A DNA stretch of 64,000 nucleotides from Bdellovibrionales bacterium (GTDB lineage Bacteria > Bdellovibrionota > Bdellovibrionia > Bdellovibrionales > UBA1609). Under the pieces are notes generated by a model. The model did not search any database, was not told where the DNA came from, and saw only the letters and a program-made list of their open reading frames with translations. The stretch's first letter is position 1. Every line of letters begins with the position of its first letter. Made by a program: the position numbers and the translations under genes. The stretch is taken from assembly GCA_028819305.1 (NCBI GenBank), contig JAPPLY010000056.1, forward strand, positions 14,800-78,799, read 5' to 3'. This document shows positions 8,269 through 64,000 of this stretch, piece by piece.

Positions 8269-8315
8269 GCAGGCAAAACACCTTTTTCGCTTAAACACTG
8301 TAAAAAGGACATTTC

Positions 8316-9935: not shown

Positions 9936-9990
9936 CTATATAAAAGAAAAGGAAACCAAAGGGAGAGGGTATCGCTCTTGGTTAAAAAAT

Positions 9991-12014: not shown

Positions 12015-12023
12015 TATAAAAAG

Positions 12024-12764: not shown

Positions 12765-12794
12765 GATTTACGAGAAAAAACCACTTTTAGAGGT

Positions 12795-12995: not shown

Positions 12996-12998
12996 ATC

Positions 12999-13604: not shown

Positions 13605-13840
13605 AAAATAAGAAAAAAATGCAAATATCGCCCCTAAAGACTTGATTTTCGTTCTTTAGCCAGTAAAAATAAATTTAAAATAGGAATTTTAATTAAAAAA
13701 CTCTACCTTAAGTACAAATGAAAAACAACCGAGCTTTAAAATGAAGCTCTTATAAATTCCTATTTATAAAGTGGAGATTTAAAACTCCTCTTAAATTTCA
13801 ATAAAGAAAAACTTAATAACCGGTACAGGGAGAAAAATAT

Positions 13841-14503: not shown

Positions 14504-15491
14504 TAAAAAAAATTACTATGAAATTTTAAAAATTTCTCCTCTGGCTAGCCCTTTCACAATTAAAAAATCCTATCAAAAGCTAGCCCGTATCTATCATCCT
14601 GATAAAAATCCCGGCAATCCTGATGCGGCAGAAACCTTTAAACAAATAAATGAAGCTTATCAAATACTCAGTGACACTTTTAAAAGAAAAGATTTTGATC
14701 GTCAAAGAGAACAAGAAAAACAAAAAGAAGAACAAAAAAAGCAAAAAGAAGCTTTTTCTCCTTTATATGAATCTTATCATTCTTATTCTCCTTTTAGGGC
14801 TCCATCGGAGCCCTCTTCCACTCCCTCCCATCCTAAAAAAGAAGAAGATCCTTTTTCCATAAAAGGTTTAAAAACTTACTTCAAAAAAACAAACCTTCCT
14901 TCCTCCGATCAAATACGTGGACAACTAGAAATATCTTTAGAAGAAGCTGCTCTCGGATGTAAAAAAACCGTTTCTTTGAATTTCACACAAAAAGAAATCT
15001 TTTGGGTTCACATTCCTCCAGGGACAAAAGAAAAACAAAATATAAAAATCCATAATCAAAATAGTAAGTTAAAAGAAGATATATATGTTTCCATCACATA
15101 TAAAAAACACCCTTTATTTACCTTAGAAAAAGAAAATATTTTAATGGATTTACCTATTTCCTTTACTAAAGCCATTTTAGGCGGAGAAGTGGAAATACCC
15201 ACTTTAGGGGGCCGGGTTTCTTTTCAGCTACCAGCCGGCACTCACGGGGGTGATGTAATTCAGTTAAAAGGTCAGGGATTCCCTGTTTCTTCTCCTCACA
15301 AAAAAAAGAGAGGGCACATGTTTATCTCCGTACTTATTGATATTCCTATTCATTTTTCAGAAGAAGAAAAAAAATGGATCCAAAATATACAAAAGAGAAA
15401 TCAATCCTGTCCAAAGGTAGCTGAATTCAGTATAAAAACAAAACTTCTTCTCAAAAAAAGAAAAAATCCCAATCGCTTTCCTGAAGAATGA
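14490..15491 (+). CDS. J-domain co-chaperone, CbpA-like (no zinc-finger region)
   Basis: J domain with YHPDKNP; DnaJ C-terminal substrate-binding-like domains; no CxxCxGxG repeats. Confidence 0.75.
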   Translation: MSTDNKKNYYEILKISPLASPFTIKKSYQKLARIYHPDKNPGNPDAAETFKQINEAYQILSDTFKRKDFDRQREQEKQKEEQKKQKEAFSPLYESYHSYSPFRAPSEPSSTPSHPKKEEDPFSIKGLKTYFKKTNLPSSDQIRGQLEISLEEAALGCKKTVSLNFTQKEIFWVHIPPGTKEKQNIKIHNQNSKLKEDIYVSITYKKHPLFTLEKENILMDLPISFTKAILGGEVEIPTLGGRVSFQLPAGTHGGDVIQLKGQGFPVSSPHKKKRGHMFISVLIDIPIHFSEEEKKWIQNIQKRNQSCPKVAEFSIKTKLLLKKRKNPNRFPEE

Positions 15492-17704: not shown

Positions 17705-17890
17705 AAAAGGCAATAAAAGCAGTCTATATCCAACTCTTTTTTTCTTCCGAAGGAAAAAAGACTCAGAAACATTCTGTTTTTCTATACCGGTTTAGTATAA
17801 CTGGACCTCCGATTATATTTTTACTACCTCTTTAAACTTTACTTAAAGCCTTTTTTTCCTCATCCGATAAAGAAAGAAAAAGGACACAAT

Positions 17891-20290
17891 ATGGAAAGCA
17901 AGATTCATATCCCACAAACTCTACCTCTTTTACCCGTACGAGATGCTGTCGTTTTTCCTTATATGCTCTTATCTCTTTACATTGGAAGAGATAGTTCAAA
18001 AAAAGCAATAGAAGAAGCTTTAAATAAAAGTCGTATTATTTTTCTATCCACTCAAAAAAATGCGGAAGAAGAAAGCTTATCTGCCAATTCTGTTTTTAAA
18101 ACAGGAACAGCTGGTATCATTTTAAGAATGCGCACCATGAAAGATGGAAGAATGAAAATCCTTGTACAAGGGCTATCCAGAGGCTTAATTCAAGATATGT
18201 ATGAAAAAAATTCCCATTATGAAGTACGCATTCAGGAAGCTCAAGATTTAGAAACAAGCGTTTTGTCCGAAAGTTCTCTACCTGTAATAAACAGGGTAAA
18301 AGACTCCCTTAAAACTATCACTGCTTTAGGAGGGCCCTTTTCCCCTGATCTACTTATGATTTTAGATGAAGTGAATCAACCTGGAAAACTAGCTGATTTG
18401 GTAACAGGACATTTTGAATTAAAAGTCCATGAAATGCAAAATATTTTGGAAACCCTTGATCCAGAGAAACGTTTAAATCAACTACAAAGAATTTTAAATA
18501 AAGAAGTAGAAATTATTCGTATGCAAAATAGAATAAAAAAAATGGTTAAAAATAATCTATCTAAATTTCCTAATGAACCTTCTCTACACAACCAAAGTCT
18601 ATCCTACAGTAACCCCACCGATCCTAAAGCTGAGGAAGTGCAAGAATTGATACAAAAAGTAAAATCAGCACAAATGCCAGAAAAAGCACAAAAAGAGGTT
18701 TTAAAACAAATTTCCAGAATGGAGAAAATGCATCCAGAATCAAGTGAAGCTTCTATGATTCGGGGCTATCTGGACTGGGTAATAGAGCTTCCATGGAATA
18801 AAAGTACAGAAGACAATTTAGATTTAGATCGAGCACGTAGTATTTTGGAAAAAGACCATTTTGGCTTAAATGAAGTAAAAGAAAGAATACTCGAGTTTCT
18901 CGCTGTCCGACAATTAAAAGTGGACTCTCAAGTAAAAGGGCCTATTTTATGTTTCGTCGGCCCTCCTGGAGTAGGAAAAACTTCTCTTGGAAAGAGTATA
19001 GCCACCGCAATGAAAAGAAAATATTACCGTGTAGCTTTAGGGGGAGTAAAAGATGAAGCTGAGATACGGGGTCACCGTCGCACTTATGTAGGATCTATGC
19101 CTGGAAAAATCATACAAGCTTTAAAACAAGTGCAATTTAATAATCCTATTTTAGTTTTAGATGAAGTTGATAAATTAGGCGCTGACTTCCGGGGGGATCC
19201 TTCGGCAGCCATGTTAGAAGTTTTGGACCCGGAGCAAAATTGTTCCTTCAGAGACCATTACTTAAATCTTAATTTTGATCTCAGTAAAGTAATGTTCATT
19301 GCTACAGCAAACTTAATTGAAAATATTCCCTATGCTTTAAGAGATCGTATGGAGATTATTACTCTGTCTGGCTACACCCCAACGGAAAAAGTGGAAATTA
19401 GCCAAAAGTATATTATAAACAAAGAAATGAAAAACCACGGAATCAATGAGTCCCATATTTCTTTTACAGAAAAAGGAATTAAATATCTTATTTCTCACTA
19501 TACGAAAGAAGCTGGACTGAGAAATCTTTCTCGAGAAGTAGGTTCTCTTTGCAGAAAAATAGCTAAAAAAGTAGTGATAGGAGATGCTCTTCAACAGTAT
19601 CTCATCACACCAAAAAAAATAACAGAGCTACTAGGACCTGCAAAATATCTAAAAGAATCACAGCTAAAAGAAAGCAAAATTGGAGTCAGCACAGGTTTAG
19701 CCTGGACACAAGCGGGAGGAGAGATCCTCTATGTAGAAGCCATCCGCATTAGTTCTTCTACAAACAAAGGCATTATTCTTACCGGCCAATTAGGAAAAGT
19801 CATGGAAGAATCGGCTCAAGCTGCTTATTCCTATATTCGCATGTATGCTGAAAAAATGGGGATCGCCAATCATTGGTTTAAAAAAAATGAAATCCATATT
19901 CACCTCCCAGCCGGGGCCACTCCCAAAGATGGTCCTTCTGCCGGTGTTACTTTAGCGACCACTCTTATTAGTTTAATAACAAATACTCCCGTCAGAAAAG
20001 ATATAGCTATGACAGGGGAAATCGGTCTCCAAGGACAAATTCTTCCGGTAGGAGGCATTAAAGAAAAATCTTTAGCCGCATTAAGTCATGGCATTGTGAA
20101 TGTCATTTTACCTCTAAAAAATAAAGCGGATATCGAAAATACCACCTCTAAAGACAGGACCCTAAAGGAACTGAGAGAAAAAATGAATTTTATTTTCGTA
20201 GAAAACCTGGATGAAGTTTTTGCTATCGCTTTAGAAAAAGAAAATACCAGGCAAGTTAGAAAAAAACCAGATATTTCTATGGCCTCCTAA
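17891..20290 (+). CDS. lon: ATP-dependent Lon protease
   Basis: Lon N domain, Walker A GPPGVGKTS, protease motif PKDGPSAG. Confidence 0.95.
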   Translation: MESKIHIPQTLPLLPVRDAVVFPYMLLSLYIGRDSSKKAIEEALNKSRIIFLSTQKNAEEESLSANSVFKTGTAGIILRMRTMKDGRMKILVQGLSRGLIQDMYEKNSHYEVRIQEAQDLETSVLSESSLPVINRVKDSLKTITALGGPFSPDLLMILDEVNQPGKLADLVTGHFELKVHEMQNILETLDPEKRLNQLQRILNKEVEIIRMQNRIKKMVKNNLSKFPNEPSLHNQSLSYSNPTDPKAEEVQELIQKVKSAQMPEKAQKEVLKQISRMEKMHPESSEASMIRGYLDWVIELPWNKSTEDNLDLDRARSILEKDHFGLNEVKERILEFLAVRQLKVDSQVKGPILCFVGPPGVGKTSLGKSIATAMKRKYYRVALGGVKDEAEIRGHRRTYVGSMPGKIIQALKQVQFNNPILVLDEVDKLGADFRGDPSAAMLEVLDPEQNCSFRDHYLNLNFDLSKVMFIATANLIENIPYALRDRMEIITLSGYTPTEKVEISQKYIINKEMKNHGINESHISFTEKGIKYLISHYTKEAGLRNLSREVGSLCRKIAKKVVIGDALQQYLITPKKITELLGPAKYLKESQLKESKIGVSTGLAWTQAGGEILYVEAIRISSSTNKGIILTGQLGKVMEESAQAAYSYIRMYAEKMGIANHWFKKNEIHIHLPAGATPKDGPSAGVTLATTLISLITNTPVRKDIAMTGEIGLQGQILPVGGIKEKSLAALSHGIVNVILPLKNKADIENTTSKDRTLKELREKMNFIFVENLDEVFAIALEKENTRQVRKKPDISMAS

Positions 20291-50026: not shown

Positions 50027-51448
50027 TTAGAGGTTTTTAACAGGAAAGATTTTTTTGTGGATAAGTTTTCTTAACTCTTTGAGATCACTTGTTATTTTTG
50101 GCTTTTTCTTTTCGATTACTTTTAAACTGTGTAATATAGTGCTGTGGTTTCTATTTCCAAAAAGATACCCTAGTTCTTTTAAGGATAAGTTTAAGTCTTT
50201 TCTAGCCAGGTAAATAGCGATATTTCGAGCATAGACAATATGTTGCGCTCGAGAAGAAGATTTTAGCTCAGATGCTTTGATGTGGAAATAGGCACAAACT
50301 TCTTTTAGAACAAGACTGAAGTTAGAATTTTTGGAAAAAGAGGGGGAATTTGCTGTGAGAGGAGAAGGAAGGGAGGGGATTTCCTTACAAAAAAGGTGTT
50401 GAACAACCTCTAAGCACAGGGCTTTATTTTGTAAATCACAAAACATTTTCACTTTATTTAAATGTCCTTCTATTTCTCTAATGGAGTTTGTGGGAATATG
50501 AGATATGTAGGAAAGAACCTCTTCAGGAAGGCCGGTTTGCCAATTTAGGGCCTTACTTTTTATAATGGCTTTTTTAGTATCTTTATCCGGAGTTTGGATA
50601 TCTGCTATGACTCCTCCTTCAAAGCGAGTTTTGATTCTATTTTTTAAGCCTTTAATATCTTTTGGTTTTTGATCGCTAGCTAAAACCAGCTGACACTTTG
50701 CTGATTTTAAACTTTCAAAGGTATGGAAAAATTCGTCTTGGATACTTTCCCCTTTCCCTAGGATTTGAATATCATCTAATAAGAGCACTTGAATATTTTT
50801 TCTGTATTTCTGACGAAACATCTCCATTTCATTTTTGCGAATATGATTGATACAATCATTGAAAAATCGTTCTGCAGGGAGATAGAGCACTTTTAAATGT
50901 GGTTTTTCTTTTTCAAGACGATTTCCAATAGCGTGCAGTAAATGTGTCTTTCCGTGTCCAGAAGGGCCATAGATAAATAAAGGATTAGAGTTATTATTAA
51001 AAGGTCTTTCAGCAATGCTTTTAGCTAAAGAATAGGCAAAAGAATTGCTAGAACCTTGTATAAAAGAGGAAAAGGTCCATTGTGGATAAAAAGTGCTGTT
51101 TTTTGTTATCTTTTTATAATTTTTATGAGGAGGCTTAAAAAAAAAAGGGGGGGGGTCTTTCAAGATCTTATTTGATAAGATGGGGGTCTGTTTTTGTATA
51201 TCAACAGCTGGGAAGGCGCCCTCTTTGTTTTTTATTTGTGTTTGAATGAAAAACAGGTGTTTTTGTAAAATTTCCTGGTGAAAAGAAGAAGGGACTTTAA
51301 GAGTAAAGTGTTTTTTTCCCTCGAGAGCCTGGCTCTCCAGGGTTACCGTATCTAAAACAGATTTAAGTAGTTTTTCTTGAAGTGTTTTCTGTAATGTGTC
51401 TTTTATCTGATTCCAAAGATGCTGTTCTGACAAAAGGGCCTCCATCAA
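50027..51448 (-). CDS. dnaA: Chromosomal replication initiator DnaA
   Basis: AAA+ Walker A GPSGHGKTHLL; C-terminal DnaA-box-binding domain (FGNRNHSTILHS). Confidence 0.93.
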   Translation of the reverse strand: MMEALLSEQHLWNQIKDTLQKTLQEKLLKSVLDTVTLESQALEGKKHFTLKVPSSFHQEILQKHLFFIQTQIKNKEGAFPAVDIQKQTPILSNKILKDPPPFFFKPPHKNYKKITKNSTFYPQWTFSSFIQGSSNSFAYSLAKSIAERPFNNNSNPLFIYGPSGHGKTHLLHAIGNRLEKEKPHLKVLYLPAERFFNDCINHIRKNEMEMFRQKYRKNIQVLLLDDIQILGKGESIQDEFFHTFESLKSAKCQLVLASDQKPKDIKGLKNRIKTRFEGGVIADIQTPDKDTKKAIIKSKALNWQTGLPEEVLSYISHIPTNSIREIEGHLNKVKMFCDLQNKALCLEVVQHLFCKEIPSLPSPLTANSPSFSKNSNFSLVLKEVCAYFHIKASELKSSSRAQHIVYARNIAIYLARKDLNLSLKELGYLFGNRNHSTILHSLKVIEKKKPKITSDLKELRKLIHKKIFPVKNL

Positions 51449-51495
51449 GTTTTATTTAGGGCATAAAAAGTCATAAAGCTATCATAAACCTCTGC

Positions 51496-51525
51496 TTGAC
51501 GAGAAGAGCCAAAACATGCTTTTAT
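51496..51525 (+). promoter_or_regulatory. Possible rpmH promoter
   Basis: TTGACG at 51496-51501, 18-nt spacer, TGc-TTTTAT extended -10 at 51517-51525; by eye only. Confidence 0.3.
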
Positions 51526-51565
51526 TATGCGTCAATAGACTTTTTATTATCTGGAGAAGGAAAAA

Positions 51566-51715
51566 GTGAAAAGGACATATCAGCCTAGTCGTAAAAAAAG
51601 AAGCCGTTCTCATGGATTTCGTGCTCGAATGGAAGAAAAAAGTGGGCAACAAGTATTAAATCGCAGAAGAAATAAGGGGCGCAAACACCTATCTGTTTCT
51701 GTTTCCAGTAAATAG
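51566..51715 (+). CDS. rpmH: 50S ribosomal protein L34
   Basis: Not in the ORF track (49 aa). GTG start; translates to [44 protein letters not shown]..., the classic L34 sequence. Confidence 0.9.
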
Positions 51716-51790
51716 AAATCTTTTTATACCGAGCTGGCATGAGAAAAGATGTCCTTTTGAGTTTTTTCATTAAAAACTCAGGTTTCTTTG

Positions 51791-51890
51791 GGAGAAAAAA
51801 GAAACGACCGGAAGTCTCTATCCTCGATTTCTTGCGCCCGCTTTCGCGAGGCCAGGCTTTCGCGAGGATCAAACCTGGATTGGTATCATA
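51791..51890 (+). repeat. Intergenic repeat X3 (rpmH-rnpA spacer)
   Basis: Colinear with the reverse complement of 41160-41262; includes a tandem GCTTTCGCGAGG x2 (51840-51851, 51856-51867). Confidence 0.6.
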
Positions 51891-51936
51891 CAAAAAAGGT
51901 AGAAACTATTTTAATTCTTTGCTTTATATTGTAAAA

Positions 51937-52269
51937 ATGTGGGTTTCCTTAAAGAAAAAGAAAGATTTTATTTTACTTAAGAAAAAAGGAAAGTATTTAA
52001 AGAAACAAAGTTTTTTTATTGTATATCGAAAAAACGGTCTTTCTTATAGTCGTATAGCTTTATTTTTTCCAAAATGGGTAGGCAAGGCTGTTCAAAGAAA
52101 TAAATTTAAAAGATGGGCGCGTCATTTTGTGGCAAAACAAAAGGGGGAGGAAGGTTTGGATATACTATTGGGATTAAAAAAAAGAGAGCGGTCTTTTTAT
52201 AAGAATATGAAATATAAAGATTTTTACTCTGGGTTTGAGCGAGTTTTTAAAGATATTGAGTTTGAGTAA
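51937..52269 (+). CDS. rnpA: Ribonuclease P protein component
   Basis: Start moved to ATG 51937 ([11 protein letters not shown]), giving 110 aa with the [16 protein letters not shown]-type motif; the track's upstream extension covers repeat X3. Confidence 0.8.
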
Positions 52270-52270
52270 C

Positions 52271-52531
52271 ATGAGGTATTTATCTTTAGTATGTCTTTTT
52301 CTTATAAAAGTGTATAAAGTGTTTCTCTCCGTTCATTTTGGGGGAGCTTGTCGGTTCCATCCCTCTTGTTCCTGCTATGCCGAAAGGGCTTTTTTAAAAC
52401 ATCCTTTTTTTCCAGCTTTTTTTTTAGTTTTAAAAAGATTAGCTAAATGTCATTTTTGGGGGCCTTTTGGTTTAGACCCTCTGCCTGTGTCCTCCTTTTC
52501 AAAGGAGAAAAAGGACCCTGTTTCTTATTGA
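52271..52531 (+). CDS. yidD: Membrane protein insertion efficiency factor YidD
   Basis: [11 protein letters not shown] motif; start placed at ATG 52271. Confidence 0.85.
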
Positions 52532-52561
52532 TTCCATTTAAAGAAAAGAGAAGAGCTTTCT

Positions 52562-54247
52562 ATGAAAGAAAAAGAGAACTTTTTGGATAAAAACACTTTA
52601 ATTGCCGTTAGTTTAGTTTTTATGACCTGGCTTTTATGGGATTCCTATATGAGAAAGAAGTATCCCGTAGGAAAAAGCCCGATTACTCAGGAAAACACCG
52701 CCCAGGCCGGGAGAAAAGAGAGACAAAGAGATAATATTTTAAAAAAAACAAGTGATAATGAAAAAAATAATATAGATGCCTCCTCTTTTTCCGAAACAGA
52801 GTCTTCAAAAAAGTTTTTAAAAGAGCAAACCCTCTCTTTTAAAAGTGATAATTTATCTTTTGATATTTCTTCTAAAGGAATGGGCTTAAAAAACTTGGTC
52901 TTAAATAAAATTTTTGACCGAAAAGGACAGGCTATCTGGTTATTTTTAGATGGAGAAAAATTAGCTTTTGAGACCCGCTTAGATGAAAGAGAGTTTAATC
53001 CCCTCTATTTTGATATAAAGCCTGTTTCTCCTTATTCCTGGGAAGGTGTAGCTGTTTGGAGAGAGATAAAGATAAAAAAAAAGCTATCAGTTAAACCAAG
53101 TCTTTTTCTAATGGAGACGCAAATAGAAGTAATAGGAAACATCCCGCCTCAATTTGGAATCAGCACTGTTTTAAGCCAAAAGCCAAAAAAACAAGGCCCC
53201 AGTCAAAGTTTTTTTTCTTTTTTAACTTTGCCGGACTTTGTATCTTTTTTTGTGTCTTCTTCCAAGGGATGGGAATATGTTCCTCTGGATTCAAACTCCA
53301 GCTCTTCTCCCTCTGAAAATGTAAAAACTTTTTCTGCTGTAAAGGTGGCAGCTTTAGGAGATAAATATTTTGGCCAGGCCTGGATGGAAAAAGAATCTGA
53401 TGTGTTACCTCAGTTTAAGATAGAGAAAGAAATAGGTTGGATTCGGCATCTTGTTTTAAATCCTAAAAAGGACTTTAAAGTATCCTATAAAATATTTATA
53501 GGTCCAAAAGACCTGGCTCTTTTAAAAAAAGACCATCCTTCTTTAATTCATTGGGTGGATTTTGGTTGGTTTAGTGCTTTATCTCGGGGAATTCTTCAGA
53601 TTTTGTATTTTTTTTACTCTTTAGTGGGGAATTGGGGGGGGGCTATTATTTTGTTAACTCTTCTAGTGCGGATTATTCTTTTTCCCTTTGTTCTTTCTTC
53701 TCATCGCTCCATGGAGCTTATGAAAAAAGTTCATCCTGAGATACAAAAAATAAGAGAAAAATTTAAAGATAATCCTCAAAGGATGAATCAAGAAGTTATG
53801 GCTGTAATGAAAGCTTATCGTGCTAATCCTTTAGGAGGCTGTTTGCCTTTATTACTACAGTTGCCTGTTTTTTGGTCGCTTTGGAAGGCTCTTTCTAATA
53901 GTTATTCTCTTTATCAAGCGCCTTTTATTTTTTGGATTAGGGACTTGAGTTGGAAGGACCCTTATTATATCCTACCGGTTTTAATGGGGCTGGTTATGTT
54001 TGTTCAACAAAAACTATCCCCTGTTACTCTTAATAAGGAGATGCTTAGAGTTATGCAGGTTATGCCTATTTTTATGTCTCTTTTTATGATAAACCTGCCC
54101 AGTGGTCTAGTTTTGTATATGTTAGTAAGCACGGTATTTGGTTTGGTTCAGCAGGTTTATTTAAATAAAAAGGGAGATTTAGAAACTTCCGCTCTTTTGC
54201 AAAATTCAAAAAAACTTAAGTCCACAAAGGGAGGACGAGATGTTTAA
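52562..54247 (+). CDS. yidC: Membrane protein insertase YidC
   Basis: N-terminal TM, large periplasmic domain, C-terminal Oxa1-like core (GGCLPLLLQLPVF). Confidence 0.92.
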   Translation: MKEKENFLDKNTLIAVSLVFMTWLLWDSYMRKKYPVGKSPITQENTAQAGRKERQRDNILKKTSDNEKNNIDASSFSETESSKKFLKEQTLSFKSDNLSFDISSKGMGLKNLVLNKIFDRKGQAIWLFLDGEKLAFETRLDEREFNPLYFDIKPVSPYSWEGVAVWREIKIKKKLSVKPSLFLMETQIEVIGNIPPQFGISTVLSQKPKKQGPSQSFFSFLTLPDFVSFFVSSSKGWEYVPLDSNSSSSPSENVKTFSAVKVAALGDKYFGQAWMEKESDVLPQFKIEKEIGWIRHLVLNPKKDFKVSYKIFIGPKDLALLKKDHPSLIHWVDFGWFSALSRGILQILYFFYSLVGNWGGAIILLTLLVRIILFPFVLSSHRSMELMKKVHPEIQKIREKFKDNPQRMNQEVMAVMKAYRANPLGGCLPLLLQLPVFWSLWKALSNSYSLYQAPFIFWIRDLSWKDPYYILPVLMGLVMFVQQKLSPVTLNKEMLRVMQVMPIFMSLFMINLPSGLVLYMLVSTVFGLVQQVYLNKKGDLETSALLQNSKKLKSTKGGRDV

Positions 54248-54743
54248 AAAACTATTTAAAGGAAAAGAAAAACCCCCAGGCGAGTTGGTAGAGCAAATAT
54301 TGCAGGATTTATTGGAAAAAGGAGGCTTTCTCCTTTCTGCAGAGGTAGAGCAAACCGAGGAAAATGAAATCTTTGTGGATATTTTTGGAGAAGATGAAGG
54401 TTTGTTAAAAACAAAGGAAGGTCGTCTTCTTTTAGCTTTGCAGACTTATTTTAATCGAGTGGTTCAGCAACATTTTTCCGGGCAAAATGTTTTTGTCCGC
54501 TTGGATTCAGGGAGCTTTTTTAAAGAACGAGAAAGGCATTTGTTGGAATTAGCGGATAAACTTAGGAAAAAAGCTCTTTCTACGGGCCGGCCCGTGTATT
54601 TAAAAAAGGCTCTTTCTCCTTTTCAAAGAAGACAGGTCCACCAGTTTCTGACACAAGGCGGAGAAGTGAAAACCTCTTCTGTAGGAGAGGGCTTTTATAA
54701 AAATATTTGTATTAGTCCTGCTGCTGATTTTTCTGATGCTTAA
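54240..54743 (+). CDS. jag: Jag/KhpB-like R3H RNA-binding protein
   Basis: Conserved position after yidC; C-terminal R3H-like LSPFQRRQVHQFL. Confidence 0.75.
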   Translation: MFKKLFKGKEKPPGELVEQILQDLLEKGGFLLSAEVEQTEENEIFVDIFGEDEGLLKTKEGRLLLALQTYFNRVVQQHFSGQNVFVRLDSGSFFKERERHLLELADKLRKKALSTGRPVYLKKALSPFQRRQVHQFLTQGGEVKTSSVGEGFYKNICISPAADFSDA

Positions 54744-56166
54744 TTTCCGATCTCAAGATAAAGATACAATATGCGCTTTAGCAACCCCTCCTGGGCAAGG
54801 AGCTTTAGCTCTTATTAGACTCAGTGGGGATAAAGCCTTTGCCATTAGCAAAAAATGCTGCCCTTTCTTACCAAAAAGCTCCATCTCCCATCGTATTTAC
54901 TTCGGAACTTTTTTACACCCTAGAAAGAAAGAGACATTGGATGAGGTTTTAGTTTTTTGTTTTGAAAAAGGCCGTTCCTTTACCGGTGAAGAAAGTGTGG
55001 AAATAAGCTGTCATGGAAGCCTCTATCTTTCTTCTCTTATTATAGAATCCTTAGTTGAGGCAGGAGCGCGACTGGCGGACAGAGGGGAGTTTAGTTATAG
55101 GGCTTTTATGAATGGAAAGATGGATTTAGTGCAGGCGGAAAGTGTTTTAAACTTAATTCAAAGCCGATCCCCTAGAGCGCATACACAAGCTATAAGAGGT
55201 CTAAAAGGAAAATTGTCGGACAGATTAAAAAACCTGGAAAAAAAACTAGTAAAACTTTTAGCTCATTTAGAAGCCAGCATTGATTTTAGCGACCAGGAAA
55301 TAGAACCTTTTTCAGAAGAGCGGCAAAACCAACTTTTAGAGGAAATAAGAAAAGAAGTAAAAGAAGCTTTAAAAGGTTTTCACCAAGGAAAGATAGACCG
55401 GGAAGGTTTTCGTATTTTGTTATTAGGAGCTCCTAATGCCGGCAAATCTTCTTTGTTTAATTATCTCATTCAGGATGATAGAGCTATAGTGACCCGGCAT
55501 CCGGGAACGACCCGAGATATTTTGTCGGCCAGACTTTTGTTAAATCAGCGGGAATTTTCTTTAAAAGACACAGCGGGTCTTCGTAAAAACCCGGATCCTG
55601 TGGAAAGCCAGGGAATAAAGAAAACTTTAAAAGAAGTGGCGCACTCTGATTTGTGTTTGTTTTTAGTGGAAAGTGCTTGCCCTTTAAAAGAAGAACGTTT
55701 TTTTGGTTTGGAAAATTTGGATCCGAAAAAAACAGTTATTGTTTTTAGTAAATCCGATCAGATACCTTCTTCTCAAAGGGAGGCTTTTTTTAAACAGGTG
55801 GAGATGTTTTTTCATAAAAGACAAGCCATATCTTTCTTTCTATGCCGAACCGGCATAAATAAAAAAATATTATGGCTAAGTTCTCGTACAGGGGAAGGCC
55901 GAGAAGATTTAAAAAAGCTTTTTTATAAAAGGTCAGAGAGAGAAGCAGGAGAAATTTTTCTTTCTACTCCTCGTCAGAAGCAAGCTATGGAAAAAATCAC
56001 TTATTTTTTAGATAAAGCAAAAAAGCTTTTAAAGCAAAAAAGCTCCCCGGAATTTATAACTTTTGAATTACAGCAAGCTCTGTCTGTTTTATATCAACTG
56101 TTAGGTAAAGAATATAATGAAGAAGTGATAAAACAGGTCTTTAAAGAATTTTGTATTGGAAAATAA
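54736..56166 (+). CDS. mnmE: tRNA modification GTPase MnmE
   Basis: G domain GAPNAGKSS and DTAGLR; C-terminal CIGK. Confidence 0.92.
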   Translation: MLNFRSQDKDTICALATPPGQGALALIRLSGDKAFAISKKCCPFLPKSSISHRIYFGTFLHPRKKETLDEVLVFCFEKGRSFTGEESVEISCHGSLYLSSLIIESLVEAGARLADRGEFSYRAFMNGKMDLVQAESVLNLIQSRSPRAHTQAIRGLKGKLSDRLKNLEKKLVKLLAHLEASIDFSDQEIEPFSEERQNQLLEEIRKEVKEALKGFHQGKIDREGFRILLLGAPNAGKSSLFNYLIQDDRAIVTRHPGTTRDILSARLLLNQREFSLKDTAGLRKNPDPVESQGIKKTLKEVAHSDLCLFLVESACPLKEERFFGLENLDPKKTVIVFSKSDQIPSSQREAFFKQVEMFFHKRQAISFFLCRTGINKKILWLSSRTGEGREDLKKLFYKRSEREAGEIFLSTPRQKQAMEKITYFLDKAKKLLKQKSSPEFITFELQQALSVLYQLLGKEYNEEVIKQVFKEFCIGK

Positions 56167-56222: not shown

Positions 56223-56310
56223 TCATTCCCGCGAAAGCGGGAATCTAGTGTTTGTAAAATCATGGGATGAAGTGGACTATGTATCATCCACGAGGAAGCG
56301 AGAATCTAGT
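56223..56310 (+). repeat. Two tandem 27-nt hairpin repeats (ATTCCC-N8-GGGAAT type)
   Basis: TCATTCCCGCGAAAGCGGGAATCTAGT at 56223-56249 and a degenerate copy TCATCCACGAGGAAGCGAGAATCTAGT at 56284-56310 (22/27 identical). Confidence 0.8.
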
Positions 56311-56348: not shown

Positions 56349-56516
56349 CCTTCAGGAAAACAGATTTGCCTCTATATGGGGCTTTGCCTCTCGGGACGGC
56401 CCTTGTCTTCCTTAGTAGGAAGCCAATAGCCTTGGACCCCAACCGGCAAACTGTTTTCCTGTAAGGACATTTATACAGGAAGGCAAATTATTGCTTTCCT
56501 GTCCCGCGAAAGCGGG
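56349..56516 (+). repeat. Nested imperfect inverted repeats and hairpins (structured non-coding segment)
   Basis: Arms 56349-56370 and 56445-56466 pair over ~21 bp with two 1-nt bulges; 12-bp-stem hairpin 56475-56502 (one mismatch, loop ATTA); CCCGC-GAAA-GCGGG hairpin 56503-56516. Confidence 0.75.
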
Positions 56517-56716
56517 GAACGGGGACGCAAGGGAAGGGTTTCAAAAGGCAAAAATAACTGAACCGTTCAACAAAAAACCACTTTTGCTTCCCGTTACTAA
56601 CCGCTTTTGCCCTCTCCTAACCGGAGTTTCCCGTAAAGATTTGTCGTATTTTTTCGGCCCGAACTCTTCTTCTCATAGAATCTCTAATTTTTATATTTTT
56701 TCTTGTATTCGTCAAA

Positions 56717-57559
56717 ATGTCGAGTATAATAAAAAATATGAAAACAGGAAGTATTACATTAGGTCCTTTAGAGACGCAGTTTTTTGCATGGACTCAATTG
56801 GAAAATAAAGAACAAGTTAAAACAGGAGACTTTGCGAGAGTAAAAGGTCTTTCTGCCAAACAGGAAGCAGATTTACTTTATAATTTGTCTTCCAGTGGAA
56901 TCATTGTAAAACTCTGGCGAGGTCTCTATCTGGTGCCTCCAAGAATCCCTTTAGGTGGTAGTTGGTCTCCTTCTCCTTATCTAGTAATTAGTAAGTATAT
57001 GAGAAACTTGGATGCAAAATTTCAGATAAGTGGACCAGCCATATTTAACTTGTACGGATATTCTGATCAAGTATCTGCTTGGTTTACTGTGTATAATAAC
57101 AAAGTCTCTAAAAAACTGTATATACTTCAGTATCATTTGGATTTTGTGAAAGTTATTGAAAATCGATTGGGTGATATGAAAGAGCGAGCACCTTATGGAG
57201 TCAAAAAATCAGAACCGGCTTTAATTAGTTCCGCTGAACAAACCCTACTTGATGCTGTTTATGATTATAAAAAATATGGAACTTTACCTAAAGCTTATGA
57301 TTGGATAGCTATTACTGTACGAAATAAAAAAATCAGTCCAGAAAAGTTAGTGAATATAACCATTAAATACGGAAATACAATGAGTCAAAAAAGAATAGGT
57401 TGGGTACTGAATGAATTGGAAATTTCACAAAGGGTTATCAACCGATTAAAAAAGAAAATACCTAAAACAAAATTTTTAGTGCCACTTGACCCTAAAAATA
57501 ATGTAGGGCCTATAAATAAAAAGTGGGGAGTGATTGAAAATGTCAACCTTTTATCATGA
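56717..57559 (+). CDS. abiEi: AbiEi-family antitoxin/transcriptional regulator (type IV TA)
   Basis: 280-aa ORF; wHTH-like N-terminus ending LWRGLYLVPP; C-terminal LVPLDP...KKWGVIENV pattern typical of AbiEi; paired with AbiEii. Confidence 0.75.
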   Translation: MSSIIKNMKTGSITLGPLETQFFAWTQLENKEQVKTGDFARVKGLSAKQEADLLYNLSSSGIIVKLWRGLYLVPPRIPLGGSWSPSPYLVISKYMRNLDAKFQISGPAIFNLYGYSDQVSAWFTVYNNKVSKKLYILQYHLDFVKVIENRLGDMKERAPYGVKKSEPALISSAEQTLLDAVYDYKKYGTLPKAYDWIAITVRNKKISPEKLVNITIKYGNTMSQKRIGWVLNELEISQRVINRLKKKIPKTKFLVPLDPKNNVGPINKKWGVIENVNLLS

Positions 57560-58421
57560 AAATGAAATACAATTTGTGGAAGCGATCAGAGAGACTGCTA
57601 AAAATTCAGGATTTTCTGAATCTTTAATAGAAAAGGATTATTATTGCTCGCTCATTCTTAAAGAGATTTTTCGGTCAAAGGATTGTTTTTTAATTTTCAA
57701 GGGAGGCACTCTTCTCAATAAGTGCCATGTTGGATTTTATAGGTTAAGTGAGGACCTGGATTTTTCTGTTTCAGATCCAGCAAAATTCTCCAGAAAGAAA
57801 AGAAGTTACTTAGCTCAAGTTTCTAAAAAATGTGTGAATGAAACTGTTAAAAATCTATCTCTAGTTTTTTCAAGGTCGTTTGAAGGACACAACGAGAGTC
57901 GTTTATATAGTGCTGAAATAGGATATCACTCTTTAATTGATGAAGACAAGAAAACAATTAAAGTAGAATTTGGAATTCATGAAAAAGTTTGGGAAAGAGA
58001 GACTTTAAAGGCAAAAACTCTCCTTACAAATCCCATTTCACAAAAGCCTGTTCTGCCAGATTTTCATTTAGTAGGTTTAAGTCTTAAGGAAGCTTATAGT
58101 GAAAAGATTAGAGCGGCACTTTCCAGAGAAAAGCCAGCTATCAGAGATATTTTTGATATTCATTATGCTCTGAAAAGGCGTCTCATAGAAGAACCTCACG
58201 GTTTTATAAAAATTCATGATATTGCTCCAATGGTTAAATATAAAATGAAGATTTTAAACCGTGAAGCAGATTTATCTGCTGAACGAAAAAAAGAACTTTT
58301 AGATCAATTACAAACAGATTTGAAACCAGTGCTACGCCAAAAAGATTTTGAAGAGTTTGATTTTGAACAAGCATGGAACTGGTTAAAAATTCTTGAAAAA
58401 GAAATTGCTAAAAGTTTGTGA
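57540..58421 (+). CDS. abiEii: AbiEii/AbiGii-family nucleotidyltransferase toxin (DUF1814)
   Basis: FKGGTLLNKCH...RLSEDLDF nucleotidyltransferase motif. ATG 57540 preferred (GGAG 9 nt upstream) over the track's TTG 57534; overlaps the abiEi 3' end. Confidence 0.8.
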   Translation: MSTFYHENEIQFVEAIRETAKNSGFSESLIEKDYYCSLILKEIFRSKDCFLIFKGGTLLNKCHVGFYRLSEDLDFSVSDPAKFSRKKRSYLAQVSKKCVNETVKNLSLVFSRSFEGHNESRLYSAEIGYHSLIDEDKKTIKVEFGIHEKVWERETLKAKTLLTNPISQKPVLPDFHLVGLSLKEAYSEKIRAALSREKPAIRDIFDIHYALKRRLIEEPHGFIKIHDIAPMVKYKMKILNREADLSAERKKELLDQLQTDLKPVLRQKDFEEFDFEQAWNWLKILEKEIAKSL

Positions 58422-58504: not shown

Positions 58505-60256
58505 ATGTTTGTTCCGTATCTAAGTTCTTTGGAAACAAAGAACACGTATGATTTATTAACTTCTCCAGGCAACCTAGCTTTTTATGATGCTGTCGATATT
58601 TATTGTGTTTTCTACCTTCTTCCAGATGATCCAAATGCTTACAATCTGTTTTCATTATTAAATTTTTACGAAAGTCGAAGTGACCATAATTCATCTATTG
58701 TTAATCCTTATCCAATGAGGTGTCCACTTACCTTTAAGTTTTCTGGTAGGATAATAAAAATTGGTTTAAAAAAAATAACTGTAGGCTTACATACTTTTCA
58801 GACTCGGTTCTATGAATATTTAAAGACAAATTCCAATTGGAATCTCAATGGTTCCATATTAAACACAAATTCTCTTAAATTCATACCAAAGTTTTTTGTT
58901 CCTCCTGCTGATGGAACCTATGAATCACCTTTAAACAATATCCTAAAGAATAATTTTTTCAATGGATCGTACGTACTTGAACAATTTGACGAGGAAAAAA
59001 CATCTTTGGAACCATTCTTTCAAGACTCCAAAGAATTACTAAAGATTTCAGCAGAGATTCAAAAACACTGGCCATTAAAACTGGCAAAAATGACTGATCG
59101 ATTGGGAAATATTTTATATCAGTTTCCTATTACAGTATTCAGAAGTGATTTTCTTAATTCTTCAGATGAAAAATCTTATAAATGCACTTTTTCTTGGGAC
59201 TCAAGAGCAACTCCTTCAAACAGGGACTGTATTATTACTACTGTAAATAAAAATAGAGAAGAAAATCTAGTGAGTGCAAAAAGCTCTGTTCGTTTAAATG
59301 CTTCTCCACAAGAGATCGTAGTAGATAGCTTAAGGGGAAGACCTGTTCATTTTGTCTATGACATCACTAATGGATTAATTTTAGGAATGTCCTCAGATCA
59401 AACAATAAAAGCAGCCGATTTAAAATTAAATATTGAACGTCCTGAGCCTAGAATATTTGAAATAAATGGTAAGATCCATAAAGTCAATGTGTTTACACCT
59501 CATAATATTTCCGTTGGTACACCTTATTCAGACAATTATGTTGAATGGAGCAAAAGAAGGGTTTTTGAAGAAGAGACACACACTCTTGAGAAAACCCTAC
59601 AATTTAAACAATACGGTTTAGGAGATGAAGAGTCACGATCTACTGCTATAAAGGATATACGTCAGATTATAAACGAACATGCTAAGAAATCTAAGTCTGT
59701 TTATCTTTGGGACCCATATCTTGATGCAAAAGGTTTAAAAAATACTCTTTTTTTTATTGAAACTACTAATGTTGAATGTCGAGCAATCAGCTCCTCTAAA
59801 ACATTTCAGAGACAAGGAAGATTTACAATGCCCAACTTAGATACTTTATCAATTACTTTTCGTAAATGGTGGGATTTGAATATGAAGATATTCAAATCCA
59901 AAATTGGAAAAGCACACTCTAAAGAAAAGGGTGAATTAAGATTTAATCAGTGGAAACAAGATATGTGTGATGAGTTATCAGGAGGAAGTAGTAGCACTAA
60001 TAATTATCTGCTCAATTTGAAATTTAAATGTCAGTATGGTCGGTTTGGACGGCCATTTCATGATAGATTTATAATTTTTCCTATGGCTGACGGACATACA
60101 AAGTGTTGGTCAATAGGCACTTCCATAAATAGCCTTGGTAAAGCACACCACCATATAATTCAAGAAGTATCAAATGCAAAACAAATAGAAATGGCATTCG
60201 ATCAGCTTTGGCAAGAGTTACCAGATGATCCATGCTTGGTATGGAGTAGCACATGA
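58505..60256 (+). CDS. Unknown 583-aa protein with a C-terminal PLD/Nuc-like domain (HxR variant)
   Basis: SD AAGGTG before the ATG. C-terminal VYLWDPYL...ECRAISS...FHDRFIIFP...WSIGTSINSLG resembles a single HKD module with K->R and D->P. The N-terminal ~390 aa are unrecognised. Confidence 0.6.
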   Translation: MFVPYLSSLETKNTYDLLTSPGNLAFYDAVDIYCVFYLLPDDPNAYNLFSLLNFYESRSDHNSSIVNPYPMRCPLTFKFSGRIIKIGLKKITVGLHTFQTRFYEYLKTNSNWNLNGSILNTNSLKFIPKFFVPPADGTYESPLNNILKNNFFNGSYVLEQFDEEKTSLEPFFQDSKELLKISAEIQKHWPLKLAKMTDRLGNILYQFPITVFRSDFLNSSDEKSYKCTFSWDSRATPSNRDCIITTVNKNREENLVSAKSSVRLNASPQEIVVDSLRGRPVHFVYDITNGLILGMSSDQTIKAADLKLNIERPEPRIFEINGKIHKVNVFTPHNISVGTPYSDNYVEWSKRRVFEEETHTLEKTLQFKQYGLGDEESRSTAIKDIRQIINEHAKKSKSVYLWDPYLDAKGLKNTLFFIETTNVECRAISSSKTFQRQGRFTMPNLDTLSITFRKWWDLNMKIFKSKIGKAHSKEKGELRFNQWKQDMCDELSGGSSSTNNYLLNLKFKCQYGRFGRPFHDRFIIFPMADGHTKCWSIGTSINSLGKAHHHIIQEVSNAKQIEMAFDQLWQELPDDPCLVWSST

Positions 60257-61743
60257 ATGAAAGTTATTTACAGCTATTGTCCTATTGTATGGATATGCCC
60301 TATACAGGTGAAAATAATCAGGTTATTTTAGAAATGATTACTGCTATAGATAATCATATTATATCTGATACTAATTTTCTTGAAAACAAAAATTATGAAA
60401 GACTTTTTCAAATAGCAACACCATTTGCGATTTTAAGGTCAAAATACAGCTTACATAAAACAAAATCACCGATTGATTCAGATTTAAAGTTATTGATTTC
60501 TACTTTATCTTGGATCAAAAAAAGATCGTCATCTAACTTAAAGTCATTTATTATCTCATCTGTAATTCTGTCATGCTTAAGTGATCACTCATTAGAGTTT
60601 AATGAAATTGTTAGTGACGTTTTTGTAAACAAAGACAAATCTATCTTAGACCGCATATTAAATATCATTGAAAAGTTCAAACTTACTATGGGAGTACCAG
60701 ATAATGCTCCGCTATACGAAAAAGACAATGTCCAAAGATATTTGGACGCAAAGAAAAAGGGTGTTTATTCTAGTATGGCCAATTATTTGCAAAAGGCCGA
60801 AAAAGGTTCTGGTTTACCTCGTCCTTCTATACTTAAATATGCAATTCTCTATGTGATTAAGAATGATTTCAAACGTTTCCTCATTGTTTTAGATAAAAGA
60901 AACAGTCTTCTGGAAATCAATATACTGCTTAATTCGTTGTCGCTTGCACAGTTAGTTCAGATAGCAAAAATGACGAAAAGTAAACTGGTATACTTTGAAT
61001 TAACAAGATTGATATTTTCCAATGATCGTTCTACGAAACTTTCCGATAAAGAAAAATCTGATTTGGCAGAGTCTATTTGCATTTTTCTAAAAGAAAATGA
61101 GGAATGTAAATCTGAGTTTTTAAATTTTTTCTTTAAATACCCTCCTCGCTATTCATCCTTAATGGAGGTAACAGGCCAAGCAGTGACTAAGTATGGAAAA
61201 GGCTTATTATGTGATATTGTAAAAATTTTTCCGATGAATCTTTTATGCAAAGATCAGCTTGACCTTCTATTGAAGGGTATGCTTGATGGATTAGATTCAT
61301 CTGCTCGACATGATTTTTTAAGGGTAATATTTAAAGAATGGTTATCTTTTTATAACTCAAAATCTTTGAATCCAAATGGACTTTCTTTAAGTATTACATC
61401 AATGGCTGACGGAGTATGTCGTTACTTTTCACATATAAGTTCTGAAGCATATTTTAAATTTCTATGTGAGAGAATTGATTGTTTAAGTTCAATTGAAGAA
61501 ACATGGTATTCCATAAAAATTGACTTCTTAATCATTATTGAAAAAGAACTTTCACAGTTTGCTGTTGCGGCATTCGCATACGATAATAAGAAATTTATTC
61601 CGCCTGCAAAAAAGATTCAAAATAAAATTAAATATCTCTTTACTGATTTCTCCTACAAATATCAGTTTGATCTTACTAAAAATCAAAAACAGATGTTAAA
61701 TCAAATAAGACCTTTTTTCCATTGGGTAAATAGTCATCCATGA
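60253..61743 (+). CDS. Unknown 496-aa protein, partner of the PLD-like protein
   Basis: ATGA start/stop overlap with the upstream gene; Leu/Ile/Lys-rich helical-looking sequence; no catalytic, TM or DNA-binding motif recognised. Confidence 0.55.
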   Translation: MNESYLQLLSYCMDMPYTGENNQVILEMITAIDNHIISDTNFLENKNYERLFQIATPFAILRSKYSLHKTKSPIDSDLKLLISTLSWIKKRSSSNLKSFIISSVILSCLSDHSLEFNEIVSDVFVNKDKSILDRILNIIEKFKLTMGVPDNAPLYEKDNVQRYLDAKKKGVYSSMANYLQKAEKGSGLPRPSILKYAILYVIKNDFKRFLIVLDKRNSLLEINILLNSLSLAQLVQIAKMTKSKLVYFELTRLIFSNDRSTKLSDKEKSDLAESICIFLKENEECKSEFLNFFFKYPPRYSSLMEVTGQAVTKYGKGLLCDIVKIFPMNLLCKDQLDLLLKGMLDGLDSSARHDFLRVIFKEWLSFYNSKSLNPNGLSLSITSMADGVCRYFSHISSEAYFKFLCERIDCLSSIEETWYSIKIDFLIIIEKELSQFAVAAFAYDNKKFIPPAKKIQNKIKYLFTDFSYKYQFDLTKNQKQMLNQIRPFFHWVNSHP

Positions 61744-61847: not shown

Positions 61848-62324
61848 ATGAAGTGGTTAGTATATTTTTTGTTTATGTTCCCAAATATTCTTATTGGTTG
61901 TGCAACTAATTATCTAGGCCATGAAGCAAAATATATTAAAAATAAACGACAAAAAAAAGTATCGAGACAATATGCTGACAACAGTAGAGATTTTATTTTA
62001 CCTACATCAGAAGAATGGGAATGGCTTAAAAAAAATTATCAAACATACGATTCTCACTTTAAAAAGAAAGTATATAATTATAACCAACTACCAGATAAAA
62101 TTAAGTGGAAAATTTTTCATCTTCCTAAATATCTAAATCCAGATACTAGACCTAGAAACTGTGTTTTTGGAACAGCTGTTCAGGACTATGTTTCTGGTAA
62201 ATATGGTCAAAAACTTTCTAAAGAAGCTCAAATTAAATGCCTCAGAGGGATAAGAGATAGTCTTTTTCCTCCAGATAGAATAGGCTGTTTTAATAATACA
62301 TTAACGTTTAATTGTAGAAGATAA
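61848..62324 (+). CDS. Small Cys-containing lipoprotein, unknown function
   Basis: Signal peptide with lipobox LIGC; four further Cys residues. Confidence 0.5.
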   Translation: MKWLVYFLFMFPNILIGCATNYLGHEAKYIKNKRQKKVSRQYADNSRDFILPTSEEWEWLKKNYQTYDSHFKKKVYNYNQLPDKIKWKIFHLPKYLNPDTRPRNCVFGTAVQDYVSGKYGQKLSKEAQIKCLRGIRDSLFPPDRIGCFNNTLTFNCRR

Positions 62325-62348: not shown

Positions 62349-62837
62349 GTGAATTTGAAATGTATATTTCCTTTCTTTTTATTTTTTTTCTTCTTAATAA
62401 GCTGTTCCGATGAGGAACATGACATATGGGACCCTGATGATCCTAGAAATGTTCCAAAAAACTGTCCTCTACAACCGGAGAGGAAGTGCCCAGAGTATTT
62501 TAAAAGGGTGGGGAAGGCTAGTCTTCTCTTAGTAGAAGCTAAAGACTCCTATGTAAAGAAAAGGGAACGCTTTAGAATAGATAATACCTATAATCATGAT
62601 CTACTCAATGAAATGTTAAAAGAAGAAGAGACACTTAATAAGTGTTTAGAAATAACTCCAATAGGGAATAAAGGGGAAAGACGAGAGTTTTTTGCTAAGA
62701 TGAACAATAGCAACTTACGAGCGGTGAATGAAACAGATAGGTCTTTTCAAGATAAATTAGCAGATCATTATTTACATCATGCAAATTGTTTTAAAGAAGC
62801 TGAAATAAAACTACAAAGGCTAATAGATAAACAATAA
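62349..62837 (+). CDS. Small Cys-containing lipoprotein, unknown function
   Basis: GTG start; signal peptide with lipobox LISC; five further Cys residues. Confidence 0.5.
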   Translation: MNLKCIFPFFLFFFFLISCSDEEHDIWDPDDPRNVPKNCPLQPERKCPEYFKRVGKASLLLVEAKDSYVKKRERFRIDNTYNHDLLNEMLKEEETLNKCLEITPIGNKGERREFFAKMNNSNLRAVNETDRSFQDKLADHYLHHANCFKEAEIKLQRLIDKQ

Positions 62838-63355: not shown

Positions 63356-64000
63356 ATGAAGTACTTTTTAGTCTTTTTTTATCTTTTGTTTTTTTATTAT
63401 TTAGCAAATGCAGGAGAAATTCATAAAGCTGCTGAAAAAGGAGATATTAAGAAAGTATCTTCTTTCTTGAAGGTAGGAATTGATCCTGATTTGGTAAATG
63501 AAAATGGCGCAACACCTTTAAACTTTGCGATTCACGGTGGAAATCTGAAGATTGCTTCACTATTAATAAAGCATGGAGCGAAAGTAAATAATAACGAGAA
63601 ACTCCCCCCTTTAATTCAAGCTAGTGCGTTGGGTCACTTAGAGTTTGTTTCACTTCTGTTAAAATATGGAGCAAATGTTAACACTAAAATTAAAGGTTCC
63701 AATGGTACTGCTCTACATTCAAGTGTGCTTAGTGAATCGAAACTTGAATATCAAATCAAAGAACTTCGTAGTAAGGGCATGAAAGTAAGATCAAAAGAAG
63801 TTACTTTACTCTTGCTTAAAAATGGAGCAAATGTCAATGCTAAAAATAAGAATGGTGTAACTCCTCTGTATTTCGTACTCTCTGCAGAGATTGCTACACT
63901 TCTACTTAAGTATGGAGCTAGAGCGAGTGTTAATGTTAAAACTAAAGAAGGAGACAGGAACCGAACTCATTTTTCCCTCTTGTTGACAATGATTTTGAGA
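63356..64000 (+). CDS. Secreted ankyrin-repeat protein (3' end beyond the window)
   Basis: Not in the ORF track (no stop in the window). Signal peptide MKYFLVFFYLLFFYYLANA, then repeated ankyrin units (G.TPL..A...G.....LL.KHGA.VN). Confidence 0.8.
   Translation, partial: MKYFLVFFYLLFFYYLANAGEIHKAAEKGDIKKVSSFLKVGIDPDLVNENGATPLNFAIHGGNLKIASLLIKHGAKVNNNEKLPPLIQASALGHLEFVSLLLKYGANVNTKIKGSNGTALHSSVLSESKLEYQIKELRSKGMKVRSKEVTLLLLKNGANVNAKNKNGVTPLYFVLSAEIATLLLKYGARASVNVKTKEGDRNRTHFSLLLTMILR

Follow-up and report, generated by a model that had tools for sequence, protein, structure and literature searches.

Does a gene of a Bdellovibrionales bacterium encode a variant of the phospholipase D (PLD) active site, and what might such a site be for? 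The gene, called gene A here, is a 583-amino-acid (aa) open reading frame (ORF) in a 64,000-nucleotide (nt) stretch of contig JAPPLY010000056.1 (assembly GCA_028819305.1), referred to below as the window, and it is followed by a second gene, gene B. The initial annotation had picked out in the gene A product the strings VYLWDPYL, ECRAISS, FHDRFIIFP and GTSIN, and had read them as a single PLD-like module in which Arg takes the place of the catalytic Lys and Pro that of the Asp. The core of this proposal, a single-copy PLD-like module with Lys changed to Arg, is supported here by the predicted fold and by conservation and, more modestly, by a profile-profile alignment of the HDR of gene A on the HDK of the nuclease Nuc. 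We further propose that genes A and B form an anti-phage system in which the PLD-like domain would be the dimeric effector phosphodiesterase and the motif its active-site region. We put the probability of this reading at roughly one half.

The translation of the window places all four strings in gene A, and the positions first quoted for them are exact: V399 is encoded from nucleotide 59699, the codon for H519 is at 60059, and GTSIN corresponds to G538-N542 at 60116-60130. The spacing of 11 residues between P526 and G538 was confirmed by coordinate arithmetic. An AAGGTGA ribosome-binding site lies 6 nt upstream of the ATG of gene A. The predicted protein is 100% identical to one named 'VPA1262 family N-terminal domain-containing protein' at NCBI, from a Bdellovibrionales metagenome-assembled genome (MAG). 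It matches the NCBIfam model NF040700 (VPA1262_N_dom) over aa 96-571 with 200.7 bits (cut-off 80; E=3.7e-59), and this model is also matched by 42 of 42 homologues.

Conservation of the motif was examined in homologues found by a protein search over 5.8 billion proteins, which returned 100 sequences of similar length with 25-79% identity; 98 sequences covering the same range of identity make up the alignment used here (A2). The residues W402, D403, H519, D520, R521, F522, G538, S540, G545, F565 and W569 are invariant in all 98, and N542 (97/98), Q553 (94/98), L401 (93/98), H549 (92/98) and H550 (84/98) are nearly so. Thus the His, the Arg and the GxSxN Asn on which attention was first drawn are conserved among homologues. 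Two other residues given as defining do not hold throughout the family: P526, the Pro of 'H-x-R-x4-P' that was said to replace the Asp, is kept in just 72/98 sequences (73%), and T539, the Thr of GTSxN, in just 70/98. HDR followed by F or Y is found in 238/238 family proteins in hand, with Lys never in the Arg position. A separate scan of GTDB species genomes was also made, and the genome-locus counts given here refer to the best 80 loci from that scan. In 79/79 main ORFs of these loci, GxSxN lies 13-16 residues past HDRF, and GxSxN was not in the pattern by which the loci had been selected. When 1.84 billion cluster representatives were searched with a profile, 1,124 clusters reached E<=1e-3, of which 407 reached E<=1e-30. 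One protein (P0192) seemed to carry a natural HDK variant, but this was an artefact of the regular expression and the actual motif is FHDRF. Where overall identity is about 30%, retention as strict as this is what one typically sees in a working site, not in a decayed pseudo-enzyme. The motif is real and under strong selection, and its signature should also take in H549/H550, Q553, F565 and W569.

The fold was predicted with AlphaFold2 (AF2) from the A2 alignment. The resulting model of the gene A protein has a mean pLDDT (predicted local distance difference test score) of 90.1 and a pTM (predicted template modelling score) of 0.78. Between aa 345 and 583 the predicted elements are, in order, the VYLWD strand, the ECRAISS strand, a helical insert, a strand at 504-511, the RFIIFP strand, a hairpin, the KCWSI strand running into GTSIN, the HIIQE strand, and a helix that bears F565 and W569. 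ECRAISS, which had been called strand-like from its letters, is thus a predicted beta-strand in the model. The helical insert varies in length among homologues and is partly peculiar to the clade of the window, columns 575-650 of alignment A1 being mostly gaps elsewhere. When the model was compared with the PDB using Foldseek, PLD-fold proteins came out on top, with probabilities mostly between 0.96 and 1.00 and TM-scores per target, for single-domain targets, of about 0.45-0.55. These matches were SauUSI (7clg_B; E=1.8e-4), the DUF1669 domain of FAM83B (5qhm, 5lzk; E=8.6e-4), Zucchini (4gem, 4gel; E=4e-3), TrmBL2 (5bpd; E=5.3e-3), NucT (6ehi; E=2e-2) and PPK1 (9urj; E=5.4e-2). The MIT_C domain of MITD1, which we take to be a PLD-like domain with H-D-R, is absent from the top 50 structural matches, and a fold search of BFVD gave no significant match. 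Judging from the model, the C-terminal domain very probably has a PLD fold, in agreement with the prediction made at the outset.

The N-terminal part of gene A, about 340 residues, gave weak Ig/FN3-like structural matches only, and no convincing structural relative of it was found in the PDB (by Foldseek) or in BFVD. It has an invariant polar cluster of its own, consisting of K148 and N150 in ILKNNF, E159, D162, K165, D198-R199-x-G201, Q206-x-P208 and R316. To go by its sequence, this cluster may mark another functional site or else an interface that has become fixed, and we propose that the N-terminal part is a sensor or regulatory part.

At the level of sequence, the family departs from the canonical PLD signature HxK(x)4D(x)6G(S/G)xN: the His is kept, the Lys is replaced by Arg, and Pro or a variable residue stands in place of the Asp. 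From HDRF to G there are 13-16 residues, and the motif that ends it is G-x-S-x-N, not G-S-x-N. In Nuc, for which the sequence from plasmid R46 was used, the motif is IQHDKVIIVDNVTVETGSFNFT, with H-D-K where the gene A family has H-D-R. A comparison by hhalign of the family's C-terminal profile with Nuc alone was not significant (P=0.094). Segments of Zucchini and NucT from the PDB search were added to Nuc, giving a thin alignment of four sequences, against which the whole domain with its insert scored P=0.039. Removal of the variable insert (98 aligned columns) gave P=0.0016, a modest signal, since the removal was a second try and the PLD profile holds only four sequences. Ten decoys, consisting of the reversed profile, N-terminal segments and partner segments, gave P=0.27-0.76. 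The alignment is collinear over all six secondary-structure elements and sets H519/D520/R521 on H94/D95/K96 and AFxxLW on SFLEHW, while GxSxN is off by three residues because of the longer hairpin. GTSIN is the counterpart of S109/N111 of Nuc by topological position rather than by residue-level structural alignment, and the His pair of HHHIIQ would sit near the position of E122 in Nuc. When 1.2 Mb of fetched loci were searched in order to enlarge the PLD profile, nothing beyond Nuc itself came up, and a tblastn of plasmids with Nuc gave, among the matches listed, relatives of at least 49% identity, which were left out of the profile. In profile searches of the kind named by the initial annotation, the HDR does align on the HDK of Nuc, but the Pfam PLDc models give no match.

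Is there a known function among the relatives of gene A? In a bioRxiv preprint dated August 2026, the full-length VPA1262 family is given the new name 'Juno' and is reported to be experimentally anti-phage; no mechanism is offered there, nor is a PLD domain mentioned (10.64898/2026.08.01.741415). The NCBIfam model NF040699 (VPA1262_fam, 1026 positions) matches gene A with 29 bits (E=2.4e-7) at aa 367-546, which is the PLD-like region, and 10 of the 42 homologues that match NF040700 also match it weakly. As far as such scores can tell, the gene A protein is a distant relative of Juno and not a member. No ORF longer than 900 aa, as expected of a fused protein, was present in 79 genome loci, and full-length Juno was absent both from plasmids (by tblastn) and from the best 80 genome loci. 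Matches of gene A to PADLOC-DB v2 models were weak and partial and are not trusted; they were to PDC-S05 (E=4e-4, aa 516-567), described as a RhuM-domain candidate, and to CARF2 (E=3e-4, aa 209-256).

Gene A does not occur alone. At 9/9 inspected gene A loci, a homologous gene of about 450-520 aa overlaps or abuts it downstream, and at the 80 genome loci a hidden Markov model (HMM) of the partner matched 71/74 downstream ORFs, all at E<=3e-21. The three misses are fragments, lying either where a contig ends or next to a truncated gene A. In a Terracidiphilus sp. MAG (locus L044, 6430-7575), gene A is truncated to 381 aa and no partner ORF comes after it; this is likely a decayed copy. The partner genes are mutually homologous at just 13-18% identity, with W363, W418 and a YPxRYP stretch kept, and their conserved residues are mostly aromatic or hydrophobic, without a catalytic-looking set. 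Searches for homologues of gene B, with the single sequence and with a diverse alignment, found at least five close relatives, and gene B had no match in Pfam, NCBIfam, PADLOC, PHROG or the PDB. Gene B is an obligatory, translationally coupled and fast-evolving partner of gene A, and an orphan family.

The neighbourhoods of the pair are rich in defence genes, which were recognised in 8/9 of those inspected. In the window, gene A is directly preceded by a complete AbiE pair (56717-58421, plus strand), so that the AbiE and gene A/B pairs together make up a small defence island. Other combinations were seen at one locus each: GmrSD with SLFN_AlbA_2; two restriction endonucleases; a reverse transcriptase with DUF4297; a CBASS cyclase with an S-4TM effector; RVT_1 with STM3845 and HEPN; and HNH with HsdM and AAA_21. 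The reverse transcriptases among these are retron-like. At L001/L002, only a transposase is nearby. In Raoultella ornithinolytica (L003; AP021983.1, 4793-10214), the pair is located between an integrase and psu/ogr-delta in a P4-like satellite by smpB, a position that is a hotspot for defence cargo. The gene was also found on seven plasmids, on five IMG/VR contigs and in one 'Bacteriophage sp.' record; of 5,426 complete E. coli genomes, none gave a blastn match. The genome loci span Firmicutes, Proteobacteria, Bacteroidota, Acidobacteriota, Chloroflexota, Melainabacteria and Campylobacterota. Rhizobium sp. R634 (NZ_LOKW01000023.1) has two copies of the pair, at 5787-19355 (L085) and 288318-301886 (L086), with identical ORF coordinates and lengths, which points to recent duplication or else to a mobile element present more than once. 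Conserved over many bacterial phyla, the module occurs in defence islands, on plasmids, in prophages and in a P4-like satellite.

From these observations, we suggest that genes A and B would constitute one two-gene anti-phage module, distantly akin to the single-gene Juno; a role of the pair in defence is probable. The PLD-like domain would be a phosphodiesterase, and probably a nuclease, that serves as the effector. On the model of Nuc, two gene A proteins might pair so that two H519 residues face one phosphate, serving as nucleophile and general acid, while the scissile phosphate would be held by R521, which takes the position of the Lys, together with S540 and N542, and H549/H550 would lie near the place of the Nuc Glu (E122). 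The beta-rich N-terminal part and the fast-evolving partner may sense infection or restrain the enzyme. For catalytic activity of the domain as such, the considerations for and against appear evenly balanced. A fuller version, which we offer only tentatively, is that H-D-R...G-x-S-x-N...H-H is a competent Arg-variant PLD site, effector of a new two-gene anti-phage system and likely of Juno too, and that partner-controlled dimerisation gates its activity.

A number of results weigh against the proposal of a catalytic effector in an anti-phage pair. The change of Lys to Arg is fixed across the family, with the canonical Lys never present, and a passage in PMC2172799, citing Sung et al. 1997, describes K898R of human PLD1 as a catalytically inactive allele; on that account, an HxR site in the canonical geometry would be expected to be dead. 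In addition, the HKD Asp is missing and the hairpin ahead of GxSxN is longer. No Pfam PLDc match was obtained with the protein, with 42 homologues, or with the isolated domain even at E<=10, and searches of PDB sequences with the protein and with family profiles found no match. Nor did any PLD family come up when both proteins and homologues were scanned with PHROGs and PADLOC. The top structural matches include the non-catalytic PLD folds FAM83 DUF1669 and TrmBL2. With regard to defence, gene A falls below the NF040699/Juno cut-off (29 vs 325 bits), and the evidence of phage protection concerns full-length Juno, not the two-gene family (10.64898/2026.08.01.741415). PADLOC 2023 has no model for gene A or gene B. 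The idea that gene B is the split-off C-terminal half of Juno found no support, gene B having no match to NF040699. Finally, the AF2 model of gene B, from a shallow alignment, is all-helical with a pLDDT of 55, and is unreliable and too poor for a fold search.

Some of these points would fit a PLD-fold pseudo-enzyme that retains a phosphate-binding pocket of H, R, S and N without cleaving anything. The pocket would bind a phosphorylated ligand, a nucleic acid or a nucleotide signal, or would serve dimerisation, and any effector activity would then be in the N-terminal part or the partner. The inactivity of the K-to-R allele of PLD1, as described in that passage (PMC2172799), the lack of a Pfam PLD match and the presence of FAM83 and TrmBL2 among the best structural matches favour this possibility, and the N-terminal part does have an invariant charged set of its own (K148, N150, E159, D162, K165, D198, R199, R316). 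Moreover, Arg in 238/238 proteins and Lys in none suggests selection for binding over canonical chemistry. However, the His nucleophile, the Ser and the Asn are invariant or nearly so, the partner is without conserved catalytic-looking polar residues, and library scans show no other nuclease or toxin domain in gene A or gene B. In known cases, PLD pseudo-enzymes usually lack one or more of the nucleophile His, Ser and Asn, and it is rare for pseudo-enzymes to show an invariant nucleophile together with two invariant phosphate ligands across about a thousand clusters. We consider a pseudo-enzyme rather unlikely, and continue to favour a catalytic effector.

It is also conceivable that the pair serves a mobile element in some way other than defence, such as an addiction or toxin-antitoxin-like function, an anti-plasmid function, exclusion, or processing of the element's DNA. 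The module travels on plasmids, prophages and satellites, the context at L001/L002 shows a transposase only, and the defence role is drawn only from the neighbourhood and the distant kinship with Juno. Such a function nevertheless appears improbable in view of the recognised defence genes in 8/9 inspected neighbourhoods and of the copy in the integrase-psu slot of a P4-like satellite, which is a defence hotspot. A further point against it is that the Juno relatives protect against phages (10.64898/2026.08.01.741415). It is scarcely credible that the HKD resemblance arose by chance in an unrelated fold, a reading for which the lack of Pfam and PDB sequence matches is the sole support: against it stand the invariance of the motif residues, the PLD-like predicted fold, the collinearity of the six secondary-structure elements with those of Nuc, and the far lower scores of decoy profiles. 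We thus retain the anti-phage pair with a PLD-like effector as the best explanation of the locus, whose features are collected in Table 1.

Table 1. Positions in the window of the AbiE pair, gene A with its predicted parts and motifs, and gene B
Feature	Position	Strand	Basis and remarks
AbiEi	56717-57559	+	PADLOC AbiEi E=3.5e-23
AbiEii	57534-58421	+	Pfam AbiEii E=2e-26; PADLOC E=6e-34
Gene A, VPA1262_N-family protein	58505-60256	+	ORF, NF040700 match; beta-rich N-terminal part and predicted C-terminal PLD-like domain
N-terminal ~344 aa, mixed alpha/beta, then beta-sandwich-like	58505-59536	+	AF2 secondary structure; own invariant polar residues
C-terminal domain with predicted PLD fold, aa ~345-583, single copy	59537-60253	+	Foldseek PDB matches and hhalign
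VYLWDPYL, predicted first beta-strand of PLD-like domain	59699-59722	+	strand E398-402; W402, D403 invariant; aligns with Nuc 'IRMMAYSF' (full-length hhalign)
ECRAISS (E424-S430), predicted second beta-strand	59774-59794	+	AF2 strand E424-430; aligns with Nuc 'VDVKIVID'
Helical insert, aa ~437-492, inside PLD-like domain	59813-59980	+	pLDDT 54-82; helices H452-467, H469-492
FHDRFIIFP, HKD-equivalent strand	60056-60082	+	HDR aligned on Nuc H94-D95-K96
GTSIN, counterpart of GSxN in PLD signature	60116-60130	+	G538, S540 invariant; N542 97/98
HHHIIQ, conserved His pair and Gln at start of next strand	60146-60163	+	H549, H550, Q553; strand E550-554
AFDQLW, C-terminal helix with F565, W569	60194-60211	+	matches F-x3-W helix of PLD nucleases; aligns on Nuc SFLEHW
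Gene B, 496-aa partner, predicted all-helical	60253-61743	+	ORF; start overlaps gene A stop by 4 nt (ATGA)

Just before the island there is an origin-type gene cluster (50027-56166), which includes dnaA (minus strand, 50027-51448), yidC (52562-54247), the gene for a jag/KhpB-like R3H protein (54240-54743) and mnmE (54736-56166). Over mnmE the GC content is about 0.37-0.39; it drops to about 0.32 in the island and is 0.28-0.31 further on. The 3' end of mnmE/trmE is a known insertion site of genomic islands, SGI1 being an example; around the island in the window, no integrase, tRNA gene or convincing att-like flanking direct repeats were found. The intergenic region between mnmE and abiEi has a perfect 15-nt palindromic repeat, TCCCGCGAAAGCGGG, which occurs twice, 275 nt apart (56225-56244 and 56502-56516), and the first copy scores as a terminator-like hairpin. 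The second copy is overlapped by a 105-aa TTG ORF (56491-56808) that probably does not represent a gene. In promoter and terminator scans, sites were no more frequent than in shuffled sequence.

On the other side of the island, two plus-strand ORFs directly 3' to gene B, 61848-62324 (158 aa) and 62349-62837 (162 aa), have lipoprotein-like N-termini (...LIGC... and ...LISC...). Neither belongs to a Pfam family, and they are probably unrelated to the gene A/B module. An ORF at about 63356-64000 on the plus strand, which runs past the end of the window, encodes a signal-peptide ankyrin-repeat protein (MKYFLVFFYLLFF..., with LLLKYGANVN units), and accounts for four 54-nt direct repeats at 63547-63939.

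With respect to the available libraries and literature, the recognition of the PLD fold, the fixed Arg variant of the HKD site and the obligatory two-gene architecture appear to be new. Gene A is not new in kind, because its family already has an NCBIfam name and a defence function has been reported for its relative Juno. Should the site prove active, it would widen PLD chemistry to a non-Lys basic residue fixed over about a thousand sequence clusters, and would provide an effector hypothesis, centred on H519, R521, S540 and N542, for a widespread defence-island pair and also for Juno. Should it prove inactive, it would be a bacterial case of a PLD-fold module that is strictly conserved and serves for binding. 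In both cases, gene A and its obligatory partner form a well-defined candidate defence system not included in PADLOC 2023.

How, then, does the pair compare with known systems? It shares with Juno the 'VPA1262 N-terminal domain' of the NCBIfam naming, and Juno too is found on mobile defence hubs; it differs in that Juno is one protein of about 1026 aa, whereas here a 583-aa protein is accompanied by a separate 496-aa gene. The PLD-like domain resembles the Nuc type, represented by Nuc of the IncN plasmids R46/pKM101 (1BYR), NucT and Zucchini (MitoPLD). These have one motif per chain and the same order of strands and helices, an HDK corresponding to the HDR here, an S-x-N past a beta-hairpin and a closing F-x3-W helix, and the resemblance extends to the Foldseek and, more modestly, the hhalign similarity. 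In contrast to them, gene A has Arg for Lys in every member, no HKD Asp, a hairpin about 6 residues longer, G-x-S-x-N for G-S-x-N, a His pair where Nuc has E122, and a variable helical insert, besides a 340-aa N-terminal extension, an obligatory partner gene and no Pfam PLDc match. The best structural match, SauUSI, is a PLD nuclease that serves as a defence effector fused to other domains, an effector role like that proposed for gene A. BfiI and NgoAVII are further restriction or defence enzymes with a PLD-type nuclease domain. However, SauUSI has a canonical HKD together with helicase and target-recognition domains, whereas scans of gene A and gene B show no ATPase or helicase. FAM83 DUF1669 and TrmBL2, which also rank high in structural similarity, resemble gene A in departing from the HKD consensus. 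In FAM83 DUF1669 and the C-terminal domain of TrmBL2, most of the catalytic residues have been lost, whereas gene A keeps H, S and N invariant and has exchanged the Lys for another basic residue.

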